Positions 29,178 through 43,669 of a stretch of 64,000 bases of DNA are shown here, piece by piece (within the stretch, counting starts at the first letter, position 1; each line of letters starts with the position of its first letter). Under the pieces are notes generated by a model, which was not told the DNA's origin, ran no database searches, and saw nothing but the letters and a program-made list of their open reading frames with translations. Origin of the DNA: an uncultured bacterium (GTDB taxonomy: Bacteria; Chloroflexota; UBA5177; JANWHV01); contig CAWHAE010000009.1 in the NCBI GenBank assembly GCA_963827235.1, forward strand, positions 1,216,001 through 1,280,000, read 5' to 3'. The position numbers and the translations under genes are program-made.

Positions 29178-30406
29178 GCGATCCACCGGCCTCGCACGAA
29201 GACGATGGTGAAGAGCGCCAGCAGACCGACAGAACAGACGGTGATCAGCCTGTCGCTCGCTCGTGGACGCCCGAGCAGGGCGAGTGCTATGAACGGTGGG
29301 AACACGGTCAGATCGAATCGCGCGATGGACAACAGGGCGAGCGGCTGGCCCGGCATTGCCGTGGGAGACATGAGCACGACCAGCATCACGGCGCTGGCGT
29401 ATGCCGTGTACGAGCGGCGCAGCCTGGTGCTGCCCCATGCGATCAGACCCAGGAAGAGCAGGGCAAAGGCAACGTCCACGAGCGACTGCGCCGCCAGCGA
29501 GTTTCTGGTGTGCGGCGAATACTGGGCGAGCGGATGCATGATCCGGCCGGCGTCCTCCAGCAAGCCCTGCCACGGCAGGGCGAATACGCGGTGCCACGCC
29601 TCCTGTGCACGTAGAAAGAGCAGGGCGTCTCCAAAGCGCGCCTGCAGATAGACCATGTAGGTGAGGAGGCCCGTTGGCACGAGCAGGAGGGCCGGCGCAA
29701 CCTTCAGCCAGCCGTCCGGCTTGCTCTCGTCGCGCAGCGCATCATAGAGCTCGAGTGCAAAAGGAATAACCAGTGCGACACCGAGCTGCCGCGTGAGACA
29801 CGCCGCCATGCCGCAGAACCCGGCAAGCCACCACCGGCGCAAGCGCAGCGCGCAGAGGCAGCCCACGCAGCAGAGCAGATACAAGGACTCGGAATAGGCG
29901 GCAAAGAAGAACAGCGCGGTAGGAAAGACGGCCAGGTAGAACACCGCGCGGTCGGCCGTGTCGACATCGAAGTCGATCAGCACCAGGCGATGAAACACGT
30001 ACAGGCAGGCAAGGAAACTGATGTTGGTCACCAGCAGCCCGGATTCGTACGCGGGAATGGCCGTCACCAGGCTCGTGACGTGCGTGAGCAAGGGGAAGAG
30101 CGGGAAGAAAGCCACGTCCGATTGGACGGGCGGCGCCTGCCAGGAGTAGCCGTGATTGGCGACCCGCACGTACCATAGCACGTCCCATCGCTCCCAGAGG
30201 GCAGCGAGGCCCACGGCGTGGCCGGCCACGTCGTAGAACAGCCTGCCGGTAAGCAGGCTGATCATGGTCAACACGACGTGGTTGACCAGAAACGCGGAGC
30301 CGGCGACCCAAGCACTGGACCGCCGACTCGAAACCCGTTCCGACGTCGAGTGTTGAGCCCAACCCACGACCATATGTTCCGACATGAGTGCTTCAATGAG
30401 GCTCAA
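29174..30406 (-). CDS. PIG-V/GT76-like mannosyltransferase (GT-C)
   Basis: RWDVLWYVRVANHGY, AFFPLFP, FFAAYSESLY, multi-TM. Confidence 0.85.
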   Translation of the reverse strand: MSLIEALMSEHMVVGWAQHSTSERVSSRRSSAWVAGSAFLVNHVVLTMISLLTGRLFYDVAGHAVGLAALWERWDVLWYVRVANHGYSWQAPPVQSDVAFFPLFPLLTHVTSLVTAIPAYESGLLVTNISFLACLYVFHRLVLIDFDVDTADRAVFYLAVFPTALFFFAAYSESLYLLCCVGCLCALRLRRWWLAGFCGMAACLTRQLGVALVIPFALELYDALRDESKPDGWLKVAPALLLVPTGLLTYMVYLQARFGDALLFLRAQEAWHRVFALPWQGLLEDAGRIMHPLAQYSPHTRNSLAAQSLVDVAFALLFLGLIAWGSTRLRRSYTAYASAVMLVVLMSPTAMPGQPLALLSIARFDLTVFPPFIALALLGRPRASDRLITVCSVGLLALFTIVFVRGRWIA

Positions 30407-30586
30407 TAGACGCCCCGGCGCTCGAATGAGGCCGCTTCGGTCTCATAATACACCGGTAGCGTCTGATACACTATGCTCCTGTCCGTGAGTGTCCTTCACC
30501 GAGTTCATCTCGCGCTAAGGCGCGCTCTGCTATGGTACGACGAGATGTCCATAGCTCAGGCCGCATGGCGGCATACACTATCGAAC

Positions 30587-32383
30587 ATGGCACGGTTGGC
30601 TCACCGGTCTCACGTGTGCTGCGCGCTCGCGGTCCGAGCACTGGCGGTCCTGGCACTCTGCGTGGCCCTCGGGTGCTTCGGCTCGCTGTACCCCCAGGTG
30701 TCGCGCGCGGACTCGATCGCGCGAACGAAGCAGCAGCTTCTCACGGAAGCCGAGCGCGCGGCTGCCGCGATGCCGCACCGGCGTGCCGGCTACCCGCTGC
30801 TGGCCAGCTACAACGGCTTCGCGCTGGCCACGGACGTGCCCGCCTACGCCTACTACAATCTCGTCATTGCCTCGCAGGACGCCAACGTAGGAGCGCCCAG
30901 CCCTCTGGCGCTGTTGCGTTTGGCCAATCCCAAGGTGATTGCGCTCCTCTACCAGCGCACGCTGCAGGTCGACTACCCGCTGATACACCAGTACTACGGC
31001 ACGAACGCGCTGTATCCGGGATGGTGGCTGCTGCGGGCGGGATCCGTCCTGAAGACCAATATCAACGCCACGCAGCGCTGGATTCCGGTGCAGGACCCCT
31101 CGCGCTTTCAGATCTACGACGACGTACTCGTGGATGGCGAGACCATGCACGTGGTGGGCAAGTACGGCGTCGCCCTGATCGTGCAACGCGGCTTCTACAG
31201 CCGGGCGGTGCCCCACAAGCTGGGCGCGCGCATCGCGGCCCACTACAGCTACCGCGTGGATCTGCAGAACAGCGTGATCACGGGACCGAGCGAGAATCGC
31301 CGCCCGTGGTCGCTCAACCTGTCCGCCACGTGCCCGCGCGACAGGCAGGGGCGGACCTGGGACGATTTCCTGACCGGCTTCCTGCGCAATCGGCTGCGGG
31401 CGGGCAGCTGGAACGGCATATTCCTGGACAACACCGACCAGACTCCGCGTGACCCGACGGTCGACGTCAACAACGACAACCAGCCCGACGGCGGCATAGT
31501 GGGCGGGGTGAACGTCTGGCGCCAGGGTGAACTGGGGCTCATGGCCGGCTTGCGCCGGCTGGTGCCCGGCGTGCTGATCCTGGACAACGGCACTCTGGTA
31601 AGCGGTGGAGTAGCCAACGGCCGTGAGTTCGAGAACTTCGCCCTCTCCGGCTCAGCCTATGCGGCGGGCATGCGCGACTACACGTTGTGGCCGCAGCTCG
31701 TGGCAGCTCCGCGCTTGCTGGTGGTCAACCCGGACACGCAGGAGCATCCGCACTACGATCTGCGCGCCATGCGGTTTGGACTGGCGTCGGCCCTGCTGGG
31801 CGACGGTCTGTACGCCTACGACGAGGGATGGCACCACCATGGTGCCGCCTGGATGTTCGACGAATACGACGACGGCGCCGGCACGGCGCTGCTCAATGAT
31901 ACGCCGGTCACCGCGACATACCTGGACGTGAGGAGCCCGGCGCAGTTCCGAGTCGGCGACATGCTCATCGTGGGGCGCGAGCAGATGCGGGTTACCGGCG
32001 TGGGCGCTCAGCGCCTGAGCGTCGAGCGCGGCATCGGCGGCACGGAGGTAGTCAGCCACCCGGCACACACGGTCGTGGCCACCGCGGCGCAGATCGCCGC
32101 CGGCTCGGGCTATCTGGGGCAGCCTGCCGGTGGCGCCCAGGTGCTGGCGAGCTCGGAGAATGCCGGCACCGGCGGTGCCGTGCTGGCGAGAGCGTTTCAG
32201 CACGGCCTGGTGCTGGTCAACCCGACGGCGCACAGCCTGGTCGCCCGGCTGCCGCGCCTGTATTGGCATCTCGAAGGCGATCAGGATCCGGCCGTCAACG
32301 ACGGCAAACCGGTGCAATCGGTGCTCCTGCAGCCGTATACGGGCCTCGTTCTCCTGAACTCCCCACCGGGACGGCGCGCGTAG
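30587..32383 (+). CDS. Secreted putative glycoside hydrolase (GHL15-like TIM barrel) with two inserted beta modules
   Basis: Signal peptide; GIFLDN, GREFENF, MRFGLASALLGDG, WMFDEYD, GYLGQP, RAFQHGLVLVNP. Confidence 0.65.
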   Translation: MARLAHRSHVCCALAVRALAVLALCVALGCFGSLYPQVSRADSIARTKQQLLTEAERAAAAMPHRRAGYPLLASYNGFALATDVPAYAYYNLVIASQDANVGAPSPLALLRLANPKVIALLYQRTLQVDYPLIHQYYGTNALYPGWWLLRAGSVLKTNINATQRWIPVQDPSRFQIYDDVLVDGETMHVVGKYGVALIVQRGFYSRAVPHKLGARIAAHYSYRVDLQNSVITGPSENRRPWSLNLSATCPRDRQGRTWDDFLTGFLRNRLRAGSWNGIFLDNTDQTPRDPTVDVNNDNQPDGGIVGGVNVWRQGELGLMAGLRRLVPGVLILDNGTLVSGGVANGREFENFALSGSAYAAGMRDYTLWPQLVAAPRLLVVNPDTQEHPHYDLRAMRFGLASALLGDGLYAYDEGWHHHGAAWMFDEYDDGAGTALLNDTPVTATYLDVRSPAQFRVGDMLIVGREQMRVTGVGAQRLSVERGIGGTEVVSHPAHTVVATAAQIAAGSGYLGQPAGGAQVLASSENAGTGGAVLARAFQHGLVLVNPTAHSLVARLPRLYWHLEGDQDPAVNDGKPVQSVLLQPYTGLVLLNSPPGRRA

Positions 32384-38269: not shown

Positions 38270-39298
38270 GTGTTGCTGATGCCGCTACGAATCGGAGTAA
38301 TCGGGACAGGGCTGGCGTTTCGAGAGCTCCACCTTCCCTGCGTGGCGGAGCTCAGGGAAAAGCTGCGTATCGCGGCAGTGGCGAATAGCACGCCTGCTTC
38401 GGCAGCGGCAGGGGCAGGGGCCGTCGCGGAGGCCACCGGCGTGCTTCCCGACGCGTGCGAGAGCGTCGAGCAGCTTCTGGACCGGCCCGACATCGGCGTT
38501 GTCCTGATAGCGGTGCCGATTCACCTCACTGCTGGCTACGTGCGGCAGGCATTGCTGCATGGAAAGGCGGTCTTTACCGAGAAACCGCTCGCGGATGACC
38601 TGGCCGACGCACACAGCCTGATTGAGCTGGCGCGGCGGATGGGCCTGCTGCTCTTCGTGGCGGAGAACTTCCGCTACCAGCGCCAATATCGACAGCTTGG
38701 CGTGCTGGCGCGCTCGGGCCTGATCGGGCAACCAGTCCTGTTTCGCTTGAACGACCTGCACTTCACCTCGCCGCAATCGAAGTACGCCGGCACTGCGTGG
38801 CGGCAGCAAGGCGCACACGCGGGCGGTTATCTGCTCGACGGCGGACCCCACACCATGGCCGGTGTGCGCTCGGTGGTGACCAGCCGGGTCACCGCGGTAC
38901 ACGGGATGACGGCGTCGTTCCACCCGGAGTTTCTGGCTCAGCAGCACGACACGCTGCTGTTGCACCTGACCTTCGAAGACGGCATGATCGGCGACGTGGG
39001 CTTGGGCTACGGCGCCGCGGATCCTGAAGGGCGCCGGCCGAAGATCTACGGACCCCAGGGCACGCTGATGATGTTGCGAGATCGCATCGAGCTCTGGACG
39101 CCTGGCTCGGCGGAGCCGGCGCAGCAATTCCCGCTGGACCTCAACGGCCCCGGCTTCAGAGAGGAGTGGCTTGATTTCTGCGGCGCGGCCGTCGAGCACA
39201 AACCCCTGGCCGGCACGCCGGAGGACGCCGTTGCGGATCTGGAGATCATACTGGCCGGCATAGAATCGGCCCGCACGGGTGAGGTGGTGCATCTCTAG
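38270..39298 (+). CDS. Gfo/Idh/MocA-family oxidoreductase
   Basis: RIGVIGTG, GKAVFTEKP, AENFRY, GGYLLDGGPH. Confidence 0.92.
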   Translation: MLLMPLRIGVIGTGLAFRELHLPCVAELREKLRIAAVANSTPASAAAGAGAVAEATGVLPDACESVEQLLDRPDIGVVLIAVPIHLTAGYVRQALLHGKAVFTEKPLADDLADAHSLIELARRMGLLLFVAENFRYQRQYRQLGVLARSGLIGQPVLFRLNDLHFTSPQSKYAGTAWRQQGAHAGGYLLDGGPHTMAGVRSVVTSRVTAVHGMTASFHPEFLAQQHDTLLLHLTFEDGMIGDVGLGYGAADPEGRRPKIYGPQGTLMMLRDRIELWTPGSAEPAQQFPLDLNGPGFREEWLDFCGAAVEHKPLAGTPEDAVADLEIILAGIESARTGEVVHL

Positions 39299-39310
39299 GA
39301 GGGCAGGAGG

Positions 39311-41206
39311 CTGGATACCTGGGTCATAGGGGTCGATCTCGGCGGCACGAAGACTGAAGTCGCGCTCGTGGATCCACGGAACAGGATCGCGGGCCGCCTG
39401 CGCATGGCCACGAACCCTTCGGAGGGTGCCCACAGCATCGTCGAGCGGATTGCCCGGTGCGTCGAGGGCCTGACCGGCCTCTTGCCCATGGACGAGCATA
39501 TCGCCGCGCTCGGCATCTGCTGTCCCGGTCCCGTGGATCAGGAGAGCGGCAACCTGTGTGATCCGCCCAACCTGGCCGGCCTGCACTATGCGCCGCTCCG
39601 TCAGCTGCTCGCGACACGCCTGCAGCTGCCCGTTAGCCTCGAGCACGACGCGAGAGCGGCAGCGCTGGGCGAATTCTACTACGGTTCCGGACGCGGCGAG
39701 CTGAGCATGGTCTATGTCGTGGTCGGTACCGGCGTGGGCGCGGCAATCATCGTCGACGGCAAGCTGTTCCGCGGGCCTTACAACTCCGCTGGTGAGATCG
39801 GCCACGTGGCGCTGGATCGGGACGGCGACATCTGCTCATGCGGCAACCGGGGCTGCGTGGAGACGTTTCTCAGCGGCCCCTGGCTGGCTCGCCGATTCGC
39901 GCGCGCGGCGAACGGCCACGTCACCGATCCCGGCGCGGCGGCGATCACCGGCGAGGCCGTGGTGGAGCTCGCCGGACGGGGAGACGCCTTGGCACGGCGC
40001 GTCATGGACGAGGCCGGCGCGGCACTGGGCACCGCCGTGGCAACCATGTCGATGGTGCTCAGCGTCGATCTCTATGTGATTGGCGGCAGCGTGGCGAAGG
40101 CGGGCGATCTGCTTCTCGAGCCGGCGCGGCGCGAAGTCTCCCGGCACTGCTTCCGATCCGTAAGCTGCGAGATTGGCATCGTGCCGGCTGAGCTCGGCGA
40201 CGACGGCCCCATTCTTGGCTGCGCGTGGCTGGCGCGTCAGCTACGGCATGGGCACGGCGCTCACGGCGGCGGTAGCATGCCGAGACGGCTGACGCACTCC
40301 GAACAGACCCGGCTCGAACAGGTTGAAGGGATGGTATTCGACATCCAGCGTTTCTCGCTGCACGACGGTGCGGGACTGCGCACCAACGTGTTCTTCAAAG
40401 GCTGCGCGATGCGCTGTCCGTGGTGCGCCAACCCCGAATCGCAGCATCGCGAGCCGGAGCTGTGGTATTCGGCGCAGCGGTGTATCGACTGCGGCCAATT
40501 CTCGCCTGCCTGCCGAGACTGCAAAGGACGGAACGGAGCAGCGGTGGGGCTCACCGGAATGCCTGACCGGGTGGCGAGGTGCCCGACCGGCGCGCTCCGG
40601 GTGGTCGGGGAGCGCCGGACCGCGGCGGATATCCTGGCCGAGGTGCTGCGCGACGTGCCTTTCTACGAAGGCGGTGGCGGCATGACGTTGACCGGAGGCG
40701 AGCCGGCATTCCAGCCGCGGCTGGCAGAGGCGCTGCTCCGCCTTGCCAGGCATCATCAGATCGCGACGGCGGTCGAGACGAGCGGGCACACGCGCTGGCG
40801 CGTGGTGGAGCGCCTGCTGCCGTACGTGGACGAAGTACTGTTCGACCTGAAGCACGTGGATGGCGCGATACATCGGGCAGCCACCGGTGTCGATACCGAG
40901 CTGATACTTGCCAATCTGCACCGGTTGGCGACTCTGCACGCGCCACTGACCGTGCGAGTGCCGCTGATTCCCGGCTTCAACACCGACGAAACGAGCCTGA
41001 GCGCAATCGCGGACTGCGTGCGAGCCCTGGATGGACCGCCGAGACCCGTGCACCTGCTACCCTACCACACGCTGGGTCGGGCGAAATACGGTGCCCTCAA
41101 TCGGCAGTATCCATGGGAAGGGCACGATCGCCTGACGGATACGCAAATCGCCGCATGCCGGGCGGTATTCGACTCGTGCGGCCTCTCCGTGAGCGTCGGC
41201 GGCTGA
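39311..41206 (+). CDS. ROK-family sugar kinase fused to glycyl-radical enzyme activase (radical SAM)
   Basis: IGVDLGGT, EHDARAAALGE, GEIGH, CSCGNRGCVE; linker RHGHGAHGGGS; FDIQRFSLHDGAGLRTNVFFKGCAMRCPWCANPES, GGMTLTGGEP, LLPYH; no stop between domains; start inferred at CTG. Confidence 0.85.
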   Translation: MDTWVIGVDLGGTKTEVALVDPRNRIAGRLRMATNPSEGAHSIVERIARCVEGLTGLLPMDEHIAALGICCPGPVDQESGNLCDPPNLAGLHYAPLRQLLATRLQLPVSLEHDARAAALGEFYYGSGRGELSMVYVVVGTGVGAAIIVDGKLFRGPYNSAGEIGHVALDRDGDICSCGNRGCVETFLSGPWLARRFARAANGHVTDPGAAAITGEAVVELAGRGDALARRVMDEAGAALGTAVATMSMVLSVDLYVIGGSVAKAGDLLLEPARREVSRHCFRSVSCEIGIVPAELGDDGPILGCAWLARQLRHGHGAHGGGSMPRRLTHSEQTRLEQVEGMVFDIQRFSLHDGAGLRTNVFFKGCAMRCPWCANPESQHREPELWYSAQRCIDCGQFSPACRDCKGRNGAAVGLTGMPDRVARCPTGALRVVGERRTAADILAEVLRDVPFYEGGGGMTLTGGEPAFQPRLAEALLRLARHHQIATAVETSGHTRWRVVERLLPYVDEVLFDLKHVDGAIHRAATGVDTELILANLHRLATLHAPLTVRVPLIPGFNTDETSLSAIADCVRALDGPPRPVHLLPYHTLGRAKYGALNRQYPWEGHDRLTDTQIAACRAVFDSCGLSVSVGG

Positions 41207-41221
41207 GATGGGAGGTGCAGT

Positions 41222-43669
41222 GTGTCCGTGCTTGTAGGCGAGCTGGGCATTCCGTATTTGCGCCAACACCCGGAGGCCGCCTTTCCCGACGATTCGCAGC
41301 TGGCCGGCGTGGCGTCCGAGCGCTGCGCCCGCCTGAAGACGCGGCTCTTCGCGGGCGAGCGCGAGATCGACTGTGAGCGCGCGCGCCACACCACCGAAGC
41401 CTACCGTGCCACCGAAGGTGAAGCCATGCCCATCCGCCGCGCCAAGATGCTGCTGCATCTCGTCCAGCGGTTGAGCATCGCCATACATCCCGACGAGCTG
41501 ATCGTGGGCAATCGTTCGCTCAAGCCGCGCATGGGCGTGATCGCGCCGGAGGGCGCGGTCGACTGGGTCGACCGGGAGCTCGACATCCTGCCGGCGCGAC
41601 CCCAAGATCGCTTTGCCGTTCGGCCCGAGCAGGTGCGCGAGCTGCGCGAGCAGATCTTCCCGTATTGGCGCGGCCGGACGCTGGAAGACATGGTGGCTGG
41701 GCGTGTGCCGGATGACGTCCGGGCGGCGGTAGAGGCCAAGGCCTTCAGTCTGAACCAGACGGACCACGCGCAGGGGCATATCCTGCCCGACGTTGCCGGC
41801 TGGCTGCGTCTCGGCGTGGGTGGCCTGCGCGCGCGGGTACAGGCGTGCCGGCAGCAACAGGGGGCGCGGCCGGCGGAGCAACAGACCTTCTACGAGGCCG
41901 CGGACATCGCCCTGGACGCGGCTGCCGTGTTGATGCGGCGCTACGGGGAGCTTGCCCGGCAGGAAGCACGGTCGAGCACCTCACCGGCCCGCGAGCAGGA
42001 GTTGTCGCGGATCGCCGAGCACTGCGAGCGGCTCAGCGAGCACCCGGCGCGGAGCTTCCGGGAGGCGCTGCAGGCCGTCTGGTTCCTCTTCGTGCTGCTG
42101 CAGATCGAGTCCAACGCCAGCAGCTTCTCACCAGGCCGCTTCGATCAGTACATGCTGCCGTACCTGGAGGCAGACCTGCAGGCAGGCACGCTGTCGCTGG
42201 CCGAGGCGCAGGAGCTGCTGGAGTGCCTCTGGCTCAAGTTCAACGAAATCGTCTTGCTCCGCAGCAGCGCCAGCGCCCGGTACTTCGCCGGCTTCCCGAT
42301 CGGGTTCAACGTTATCCTGGGCGGCCAGCTGCCCGGAGGGGTCGACGCCACGAACTTTCTCAGCTACATGTGCCTGCGGGCGCAGTCCGACCTCGGTTTA
42401 ACCCAGCCCAACCTATCCGTTCGTGTGTACGATAAGAGCCCACAGGCGTTCCTGCTCGCGGCGGCCCGCGTGATCGGCAAGGGGAGCGGCATGCCGCAGG
42501 TCTTCAACGACGACGTGATCGTTCCCGGGCAGATCAATCGCGGCATCGCACCCGACGATGCCGTGAACTACGCGGTCGTGGGCTGCGTGGAGCTCTCGAC
42601 ACCCGGCAAGGCGCTCGGCTGGAGCGATGCCTCCATGTTCAATCTGACCCGCGTGCTGGAACTGACGCTGTTCGGCGGCAAGGATCCGCGGAGCGGGATC
42701 CAGGCCGGCCTGCCCACGCCGCCCCTCGACGAAATGGGCTCGATGGACGACGTGGAGGAGGCATACGACCGCCAGCTCGTCCGCTTCGTGGACCTGATGG
42801 TAGAGGGCTGCAACGTCGTGGACCGGCTGCACGCGGAGATACTACCGTCGCCGTTCCTGTCCCTGCTGATCGAGGACTGCATCGGGCGTGGCCTGGACGT
42901 GACGGCCGGCGGGGCTACCTACAACTTCAGCGGGGTGCAGGGAGTGCAGATTGCCAATGTGGCCGACAGTCTCGCCGCCGTTCGAGCAGCGGTGTTCGAG
43001 CAGAAGTGGCTGACGGGCTCCGAGCTGCTCACCACGCTGCGGCGCAACTTCCAGGATGACGAGGTGCTGCGCCAGCGCCTGATCAACCGCGTGCCGAAGT
43101 ACGGGAACGACGACGATCGAGTGGACCGGTTGGCGCGGAAGTGGGCGCGGCGCTACTGTGGCCTGGTCGAGCAGCACCCGAACGTGCGCGGGGGCATGTA
43201 TCAGCCGGGCTTCTACACCGTCTCCGCGCACGTGCCCATGGGCGCCAACGTGGGCGCAATGCCGGACGGCCGCCGGTCCGGCGAGCCGCTGGCCGACGGC
43301 GGCATCTCGCCCATGACCGGCCGCGATGAGAAGGGGCCTACGGCCGTGCTGCGGTCGGTCGGCAGCATGGACCTGGCGCTGGCCTCCAACGGCACGCTGC
43401 TGAACATGAAGTTCTCGCCGCAGTTCTTCGATGGAGAGCACGCCACGGCGCAATTCGCGGCGCTGCTGCGTGGCTTCTGCCGCCTGCGCATTCCGCACGT
43501 GCAATTCAACGTCGTCTCGGCCACCACACTGCGTGCAGCCCAGGCGAGCCCTGCCGAGTATCGATCGCTGGTCGTGCGGGTGGCCGGGTACAGCGCGTAC
43601 TTCACCGAGCTGGACAGGGACCTGCAAGACGAGATCATCCGCCGGACCGAATTCGGCCGGCAGATGTGA
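41222..43669 (+). CDS. pflD: Glycyl radical enzyme, PflD-like clade
   Basis: RVAGYSAYF glycyl loop, single-Cys GCVELS; ESNASSFSPGRFDQYM, IVLLRSSASARYFAGFP, YNFSGVQG and YTVSAHVP match E. coli PflD as recalled; GGAGG RBS. Confidence 0.85.
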   Translation: MSVLVGELGIPYLRQHPEAAFPDDSQLAGVASERCARLKTRLFAGEREIDCERARHTTEAYRATEGEAMPIRRAKMLLHLVQRLSIAIHPDELIVGNRSLKPRMGVIAPEGAVDWVDRELDILPARPQDRFAVRPEQVRELREQIFPYWRGRTLEDMVAGRVPDDVRAAVEAKAFSLNQTDHAQGHILPDVAGWLRLGVGGLRARVQACRQQQGARPAEQQTFYEAADIALDAAAVLMRRYGELARQEARSSTSPAREQELSRIAEHCERLSEHPARSFREALQAVWFLFVLLQIESNASSFSPGRFDQYMLPYLEADLQAGTLSLAEAQELLECLWLKFNEIVLLRSSASARYFAGFPIGFNVILGGQLPGGVDATNFLSYMCLRAQSDLGLTQPNLSVRVYDKSPQAFLLAAARVIGKGSGMPQVFNDDVIVPGQINRGIAPDDAVNYAVVGCVELSTPGKALGWSDASMFNLTRVLELTLFGGKDPRSGIQAGLPTPPLDEMGSMDDVEEAYDRQLVRFVDLMVEGCNVVDRLHAEILPSPFLSLLIEDCIGRGLDVTAGGATYNFSGVQGVQIANVADSLAAVRAAVFEQKWLTGSELLTTLRRNFQDDEVLRQRLINRVPKYGNDDDRVDRLARKWARRYCGLVEQHPNVRGGMYQPGFYTVSAHVPMGANVGAMPDGRRSGEPLADGGISPMTGRDEKGPTAVLRSVGSMDLALASNGTLLNMKFSPQFFDGEHATAQFAALLRGFCRLRIPHVQFNVVSATTLRAAQASPAEYRSLVVRVAGYSAYFTELDRDLQDEIIRRTEFGRQM

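Follow-up and report, generated by a model that had tools for sequence, protein, structure and literature searches.

A ROK-family kinase fused to a glycyl radical enzyme activase beside a PflD-clade enzyme in an uncultured Chloroflexota bacterium

Radical "anhydroglycolysis" was reportedly described in 2024 in Escherichia coli and gut bacteria, and the phosphotransferase system (PTS) is said to be its phosphorylating step. Here we describe a gene of an uncultured Chloroflexota bacterium in which a ROK-family sugar kinase is fused in frame to a glycyl-radical-enzyme activating enzyme (AE). The gene lies at positions 39311 to 41206 of a 64,000-nucleotide stretch of contig CAWHAE010000009.1 (the whole stretch is referred to as the window), upstream of a gene for a glycyl radical enzyme (GRE) of the PflD clade. 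The two fused domains are most likely the kinase and the activase of one anhydro-sugar pathway of the PflD type.

As set out in a 2026 review, PflD of E. coli opens the ring C-O bond of 1,5-anhydromannitol-6-phosphate (AM6P) and YbiW cleaves the ring C-O bond of 1,5-anhydroglucitol-6-phosphate (AG6P), each yielding 1-deoxyfructose-6-phosphate (PMC13450708). Both E. coli pathways start with phosphorylation by the PTS, according to a 2025 review (PMC12441222). The pflD and pflC genes lie among the PTS genes frwC, frwB, frwD, and ptsA and are adjoined by fsaB and gldA. Like this locus, the window encodes a GRE (48% identical in amino acids to PflD over its full length, 780 positions being aligned) that has the Cys-x-Glu loop and the radical motif, an adjacent activase with a four-cysteine insert, and, alongside, a phosphorylating function. 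The two systems differ in that phosphorylation is carried out by the PTS in E. coli and, as proposed here, by an ATP-dependent ROK kinase fused to the activase in the window. In further contrast to E. coli, the window has no fsaB- or gldA-type genes near the unit, its activase is only 33% identical to PflC (301 aligned positions) and belongs to a different AE clade, and its GRE scores below the cutoff of the PflD model. The ybiW-ybiY-fsaA system (AG6P C-O lyase) represents the same enzyme class and product as those proposed for the window, but the window GRE is nearer to PflD (776 bits) than to YbiW (499 bits) and falls in the PflD clade.

In most AEs, eight cysteines of a ferredoxin-like insert serve two auxiliary clusters, and PFL-AE lacks the insert altogether, according to the same 2026 review, which also counts only one experimental activase structure and gives the role of the insert as unknown (PMC13450708). 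Stand-alone activases of the CutD/HpdA type, with two ferredoxin-type clusters, have in common with the window protein the radical S-adenosylmethionine (SAM) core and an insert that follows the cluster loop; they have eight insert cysteines, whereas the window protein and its close group keep four. A ROK-type kinase fused to an enzyme of the same pathway is likewise found in GNE (UDP-GlcNAc 2-epimerase/N-acetylmannosamine kinase), the kinase domains of which (3eo3 and 2yhy) are among the solved relatives of the window ROK, at approximately 110 bits. In GNE the kinase lies at the C terminus and is joined to a sugar epimerase, whereas in the window protein it lies at the N terminus and is joined to a radical-SAM enzyme that modifies a protein. 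No published description of a ROK-AE fusion was found in the literature searched, which included PMC13450708; Ma et al. 2024 (JACS), possibly mentioning kinase-type clusters, was outside that scope.

The fusion and its distribution

The frame that contains the gene is open from 39299 to 41206 on the plus strand, between TAG 39296-39298 and TGA 41204-41206, and its product read from 39311 has 631 residues. An initial annotation made from the DNA letters had taken 39311 to 41206 as one open frame, which holds, but 39311 is a CTG codon and the frame is shared with an upstream Gfo/Idh/MocA-family gene, one TAG (39296-39298) and four codons lying between the two. Residues 5 to 310 (39323..40240) form a ROK-family sugar kinase domain, which matches Pfam PF00480 at 217.3 bits (cutoff, 22.9) over profile positions 1 to 293 of 294. 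No N-terminal helix-turn-helix (HTH) stands in front of the ROK domain; the profile begins at residue 5, and the matches to NagC and Mlc start at their residues 82 and 144, beyond their DNA-binding parts. The DLGGTK, EIGH, and zinc motifs are conserved in the alignment, and none of the 83 aligned fused proteins departs from them at the zinc-motif residues H165, C175, C177, and C182, at E162 of EIGH, or at the catalytic D113. The initial annotation had described a complete, HTH-less ROK domain with DLGGT, EIGH, and CxCGxxGCxE, and all of these elements are present. The best solved relatives of the domain are the glucokinases 2qm1 and 3vgk; the domain itself scores 192.8 bits on TIGR00744, under the cutoff of 260.35.

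The kinase is followed by a linker of 25 residues (residues 311 to 335; 40241..40315) that contains the His/Gly run RHGHGAHGGGS (residues 312 to 322) noticed at the outset. It is modeled as disordered, with an AlphaFold predicted local distance difference test (pLDDT) score of <50 for residues 314 to 324 in both single-chain models, and its length and sequence differ among homologs.

The C-terminal part, residues 342 to 622 (40334..41176), is a radical-SAM AE that scores 293.7 bits on the NCBIfam GRE activase model TIGR02494 (cutoff, 174.35), with a Pfam Radical_SAM match over residues 360 to 560. The CxxxCxxC motif of the activase was correctly recognized from the beginning: the CX3CX2C cluster cysteines C365, C369, and C372 (40403..40426) are invariant in 83/83 fused proteins, as is the GGE SAM motif (G462-G463-E464) among the aligned fused proteins. 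A reduced ferredoxin-like insert (40481..40585) contains four conserved cysteines (C391, C394, C401, and C424, the last followed by P425), again without exception in the 83 proteins, and an additional one, C404, which is not conserved. A distant fused group has eight insert cysteines, arranged as two full CX2CX2CX3C motifs, and the insert of E. coli PflC, short and with four cysteines, is comparable to that of the window protein. The eight-cysteine insert given for most AEs is not found in the window protein, which has the four conserved cysteines; this is no bar to its identity as an AE, since PFL-AE has no insert. From these comparisons, the four-cysteine insert looks like a conserved one-cluster version and not a relic. 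The insert had earlier been called degenerate, which is right insofar as it has four cysteines instead of eight but not in the sense of vestigial, given the four invariant positions and the similar insert of PflC.

The statement that GRE activases are usually stand-alone agrees with the source genome itself, in which the two other activases are separate genes. These belong to two more GREs, at C12:1078549-1081163 and C9:169398-171875 of the source genome (G000), each with its own stand-alone activase (frames of 306 and 268 amino acids).

The ROK kinase fused in frame to a GRE activase, as first proposed, is borne out by the PF00480 and TIGR02494 matches in one open frame, and the combination of ROK and Radical_SAM recurs widely. 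A homolog search, in which the 120 best were listed, the window's own protein was excluded, and a length filter of 347 to 1,105 amino acids disfavored ordinary split genes, gave 84 full-length two-domain proteins (616 to 701 amino acids; 38 to 65% identity); the other listed homologs were 9 two-domain fragments, 16 proteins with ROK only, and 10 with the activase only. Many of the fused homologs bear the JGI pipeline name [quoted passage not shown] At the DNA level, the junction is read through without a stop in L013 (a metagenome-assembled genome [MAG] of Acidoferrales), L014 (a Chloroflexia MAG), and the metagenome contigs L119 and L120. Close homologs are thus not all separate genes; fused and split forms both exist. 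In L017, L018, L123, and L124 the ROK gene is split from but adjacent to the activase gene, ending just before it, and other split orders are ROK-GRE-AE (L015) and GRE-AE-x-ROK (L016). In a phylum sample of 401 genomes (150 matches listed, 515 further), full-length matches among the 150 listed occurred in the source genome only and a junction-spanning match in the same-genus genome G154 only. Judged by these sequence comparisons, the ROK-AE fusion is real and conserved and is common to many uncultured bacteria.

In a tree of 50 AE rows, 32 rows form one clade (SH-aLRT, 99) that comprises 26 of the 26 fused proteins, five of the six split ROK-linked activases, and one activase of unknown context, with E. 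coli PflC and YbiY outside it. The adjacent-but-split L018, L124, and L123 are basal in this clade, L015 and L016 are interspersed with the fused rows, and at least three changes between the fused and split states are needed on the tree. The fusion most likely derives from a ROK gene and an AE gene directly downstream of it: a ROK-then-AE gene pair would have been fused once via stop-codon loss, with later splitting or rearrangement in some lineages. The GREs that accompany the activases of this one clade come from both the PflD and the YbiW clades. On the metagenome contig L123 (1316-8337), a PflD-clade GRE (59% identity), a split ROK/AE pair, and a second GRE (37% identity) follow one another in this order, and one kinase and one activase may there serve two GREs.

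The partner glycyl radical enzyme and the proposed pathway

The activase adjoins its GRE, the gene of which (41222..43669, plus strand; 815 amino acids; Pfam PFL-like and Gly_radical) starts 16 nucleotides downstream. Aligned with E. coli PflD, it has the cysteine loop G-C455-V-E457 and the glycyl-radical motif R-V-A-G789-Y-S, and its best solved match is E. coli PflD (8yjo), ahead of the glycerol dehydratase 1r8w (647 bits). The GRE tree comprised 69 rows, namely, the window GRE, the two other GREs of the genome, E. coli PflD and YbiW, and, from the fetched loci, the GREs with an intact frame next to the activase; it left out frameshifted GREs (e.g., that of L013), and labeled glycerol or diol dehydratases were not among its rows. 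The window GRE and three Chloroflexota rows formed one group; with L019 (Acidobacteriota) added, this group was sister to E. coli PflD plus L026 (Desulfosporosinus); the branches of this seven-row PflD clade each had an SH-aLRT of 100. On the tree and the model scores, the GRE is a sister lineage in the PflD clade and no certified equivalog.

A fused or in-locus ROK gene accompanies 9 of the 69 GRE rows, 4 of the 7 in the PflD clade and 5 of the 7 in the YbiW clade, and none of the 55 rows outside these two clades. Since similarity to the fused query decided which loci were fetched, the top six were bound to contain ROK; three Bacteroidales loci came through the activase alone. ROK genes are found alongside the YbiW-clade GREs of Bacteroidales, Spirochaetaceae, and Anaerolineae loci. 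In L044, L051, and L070 (Bacteroidales/Rikenellaceae), the order is AE, YbiW-clade GRE, and a distant ROK. The Bacteroidales ROKs are only 28 to 30% identical to the window ROK, which suggests a separate recruitment of the kinase in Bacteroidales. The initial annotation had surmised that the fusion ties radical installation to substrate availability or channels the phosphorylated sugar to the GRE. The metabolic link is well supported by the occurrence of ROK genes solely with PflD- and YbiW-clade GREs in the tree. Literal channeling, or gating of radical installation by sugar or ATP, is conjectural, and close relatives that have separate ROK and AE genes in varying order speak against obligatory coupling.

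On balance we favor, with reasonable rather than strong confidence, the reading that the two domains of the encoded enzyme serve a single catabolic pathway, one as the kinase of an anhydro-hexitol and the other as the activase of the PflD-clade GRE. For the substrate and the role of the kinase, we infer the following scheme. The ROK domain would phosphorylate an imported 1,5-anhydro-hexitol at O6 at the expense of ATP, the likeliest substrate being 1,5-anhydromannitol or its C2 epimer, and the radical-SAM domain would install the glycyl radical on the adjacent GRE. Like E. coli PflD, the GRE would then convert the 6-phosphate by ring opening into 1-deoxyfructose-6-phosphate. A ROK kinase would thus take the place of the E. 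coli PTS, also in the relatives from Chloroflexota, Acidobacteriota, Spirochaetota, and Bacteroidota, and the fusion would keep kinase and activase at 1:1.

The first gene of the three-gene unit encodes a sugar oxidoreductase of the Gfo/Idh/MocA family (38270..39298, plus strand; Pfam GFO_IDH_MocA N- and C-terminal domains), which would probably make or interconvert the free sugar, for example, by reduction of 1,5-anhydrofructose. Oxidoreductases recur beside these clusters (Gfo/Idh/MocA in the window and G154, Gfo/Idh/MocA and a GMC oxidoreductase in L016, a GMC oxidoreductase together with a sugar ABC transporter in L015, and a zinc-dependent alcohol dehydrogenase in L018), a pattern suggestive of a redox reaction that acts on the free sugar. 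That the window enzyme reduces 1,5-anhydrofructose is a guess because of its weak match to the 1,5-anhydrofructose reductase 2glx (55 bits; E, 5.7e-14), which is no better than those to other family members. Its best solved relative is 1zh8 (function unknown) at 125 bits, and against this score the match to 2glx was too weak for the gene to be identified as a 1,5-anhydrofructose reductase. In L014 (6044-9768), a GH38 (alpha-mannosidase family) gene and a gene for a BadF/BadG-type ATPase precede the fused gene on the opposite strand, and a LacI-family regulator gene lies downstream; the GH38 gene beside this fusion hints at a mannose-related source of the substrate.

Of the EIIC families, only the Glc/Fru type (PF02378) was searched for, and it was not found in the source genome (completeness, 95.9%). 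Genes for Enzyme I and HPr lie close together at C10:375002-377668 of the genome. The description of the bacterium as an organism without a PTS is ruled out by these two proteins; the PTS core may serve something besides sugar import.

Several observations weigh against the proposed pathway. The source genome does encode Enzyme I and HPr; its sole FSA-like gene lies elsewhere and scores 164.7 bits, against a cutoff of 246; neither an aldolase nor a sugar transporter was found among the neighbors checked near the unit; and the likeness of the oxidoreductase to 1,5-anhydrofructose reductase is weak. The GRE scores 862.4 on the NCBIfam PflD model PRK09983, below the cutoff of 1109 (E. coli PflD, 1725; L026, 1239; GREs of other clades, 568 to 720), and as a sister lineage it may have a different substrate. 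On the kinase side, the ATP-binding DLGGT motif has no canonical start codon ahead of it, and a kinase translated from GTG 39368 or a later start would be dead. The window protein is also among the most divergent members of its group, and the system may be decaying in this lineage, in which at least the kinase part is dispensable in G154.

Domain contact, start codon, and decay

A different reading of the fusion, which we regard as unlikely but keep as a minority reading, is that it acts as a regulatory device. ROK kinases close on binding of sugar or ATP, and a ROK domain lying as a lid on the cluster/SAM face of the AE could be moved by these ligands, so that the GRE would be activated only when substrate is present. 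The single-chain AlphaFold model had a predicted template modeling (pTM) score of 0.51 with 23 sequences, rising to 0.65 (mean pLDDT, 85.3) with 83 sequences. Complex prediction of ROK (residues 1 to 312) against AE (335 to 631) gave 0.63, with runs between 0.62 and 0.64, compared with 0.00 in the best of three controls; the 0.63 mark is reached by 58 of 80 solved complexes and by 2 of 110 mismatched pairs. The runs shared at least 72% of contacts, with partner pLDDT of at least 86; both chains were taken from one 23-row alignment, and the three runs differed by seed alone. The AE contacts at 364 to 368, 466 to 470, and 493 to 498 come directly after the barrel strands 357 to 362, 457 to 462, and 485 to 490, so that the contact face is that of the first three barrel strands, the site of the cluster cysteines and the GGE motif. 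Contacts on the ROK side are mostly in residues 282 to 294, where 55 of 58 close fused proteins retain R282 and 53 of 58 retain C286, as opposed to 1 and 0, respectively, of 7 split ROK relatives.

The model thus supports, short of proof, a docking of ROK on the cluster/SAM face of the AE. Its score is, however, a model confidence and not a measurement, and several points speak against a lid. The fused groups B and C differ strongly at the ROK interface residues, the window protein departs from the group majority at 7 of 15 ROK interface positions, and the seven split relatives are kin and no independent samples. Close relatives also have separate ROK and AE genes in varying order (L015, L016, and G337). 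The more specific version, with ROK as a ligand-operated lid at the place where the GRE glycine loop would enter and radical installation licensed by the pathway's own substrate, is in our view still more doubtful.

It is also rather improbable, at about the level of that last version, that the kinase half is unmade or being lost in this organism, the start codon having mutated to CTG and translation beginning downstream, in which case the fusion would be a fossil. The case for this begins at the 5' end of the gene. ATG, GTG, and TTG are all missing from the stretch that separates the upstream stop from the DLGGT motif, and GTG 39368 is the first canonical start; D9-L-G-G-T13 is in frame but upstream of this GTG and would be translated only from CTG 39311 or another noncanonical codon. 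A 167-nucleotide contig from another public run (X2) is identical over 39237-39403, spanning both the TAG and the CTG, so that the CTG is no obvious assembly error. However, the Shine-Dalgarno-like GGAGGG at 39298..39303, read from the sequence, lies 7 nucleotides before CTG 39311 (its GGAGG core, 8 nucleotides) and overlaps the upstream stop, an arrangement that suits coupled reinitiation. Fused homologs begin M-x-x-W-V-I-G-V-D-L-G-G-T, and in an alignment of 23 fused proteins the methionine stands over the window CTG (L-D-T-W-V-I-G in the window). CTG 39311 (39311..39313) is on these grounds the probable, noncanonical start of translation. The database version of the window protein (P0002; 600 amino acids) starts after GTG 39368 and has no DLGGT; for annotation, this means that the gene caller's product omits the ATP-binding loop, since the start is probably the CTG. 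The in-frame ATGs at 40277 (M323) and 40331 (M341) do exist, as was noted initially along with their weak ribosome-binding sites, and no good Shine-Dalgarno sequence stands at a usable distance from either, which speaks against internal translation of the activase alone.

The state of the only other copy in the genus bears on the same question. In G154, the oxidoreductase (77% identity), activase (76%), and GRE (76%) are kept in the same order, but ROK residues 1 to 250 are replaced by approximately 100 unrelated bases; the C-terminal 67 residues of ROK are retained in frame with the AE (L100, 1375-2644). The G154 activase has a +1 insertion near window position 40879, and the copy may be a true pseudogene or, as far as the insertion is concerned, reflect an assembly error. 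The window protein itself deviates at 10 of 139 ROK columns that are at least 90% conserved, compared with a group median of 2 per half. Against loss of the kinase half, the AE deviates about as often (9 of 122 columns), in both halves mostly conservatively, and because the deviations are equal in the two halves the kinase half decays no faster than the activase half. The entire 631-codon frame is open, and the window protein retains all residues that show no variation among the 83 fused proteins. The CTG start, the G154 copy, and the divergence of the window protein together leave some, if modest, probability that the kinase half, or the unit as a whole, is losing function.

That the single frame is an artefact of assembly or sequencing that joins two genes is scarcely credible: split forms exist in relatives and no contig of the two public runs (which hold 0.08 and 0.06 of the sampled words) covers the linker region 40196-40357, but the junction is open in 84 independent database proteins and likewise in L013, L014, L119, and L120, and in the G154 copy the remnant of ROK continues into the AE without a change of frame.

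Genomic surroundings and implications

Beyond the three-gene unit, the neighbors, named from their translations, are NUDIX, NAD-binding epimerase-like, ABC-2 exporter, MarR, DnaJ-domain, AI-2E transporter, and purE/purK-like genes, and among the window neighbors checked no pathway partner was evidently linked. Farther upstream, on the minus strand (27816-32383), GT87-like and PIG-V-like membrane glycosyltransferases are encoded beside a 636-amino-acid protein with a weak match to GHL15 (putative glycosyl hydrolase); these genes may make up a unit for cell-envelope glycans that has no connection with the fusion.

A natural activase with an invariant, reduced four-cysteine insert, fused to a well-folding kinase, would be useful for structure work. 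If the predicted contact on the active face of the activase is true, it would offer a route to how activation is controlled, and a lid, should there be one, would be the first known substrate-gated GRE activase. The ROK domain of the window protein is a candidate 1,5-anhydro-hexitol kinase. Taken with those of its relatives, the locus suggests that environmental Chloroflexota, Acidobacteriota, Spirochaetota, and Bacteroidota run anhydroglycolysis with a ROK kinase instead of the PTS.

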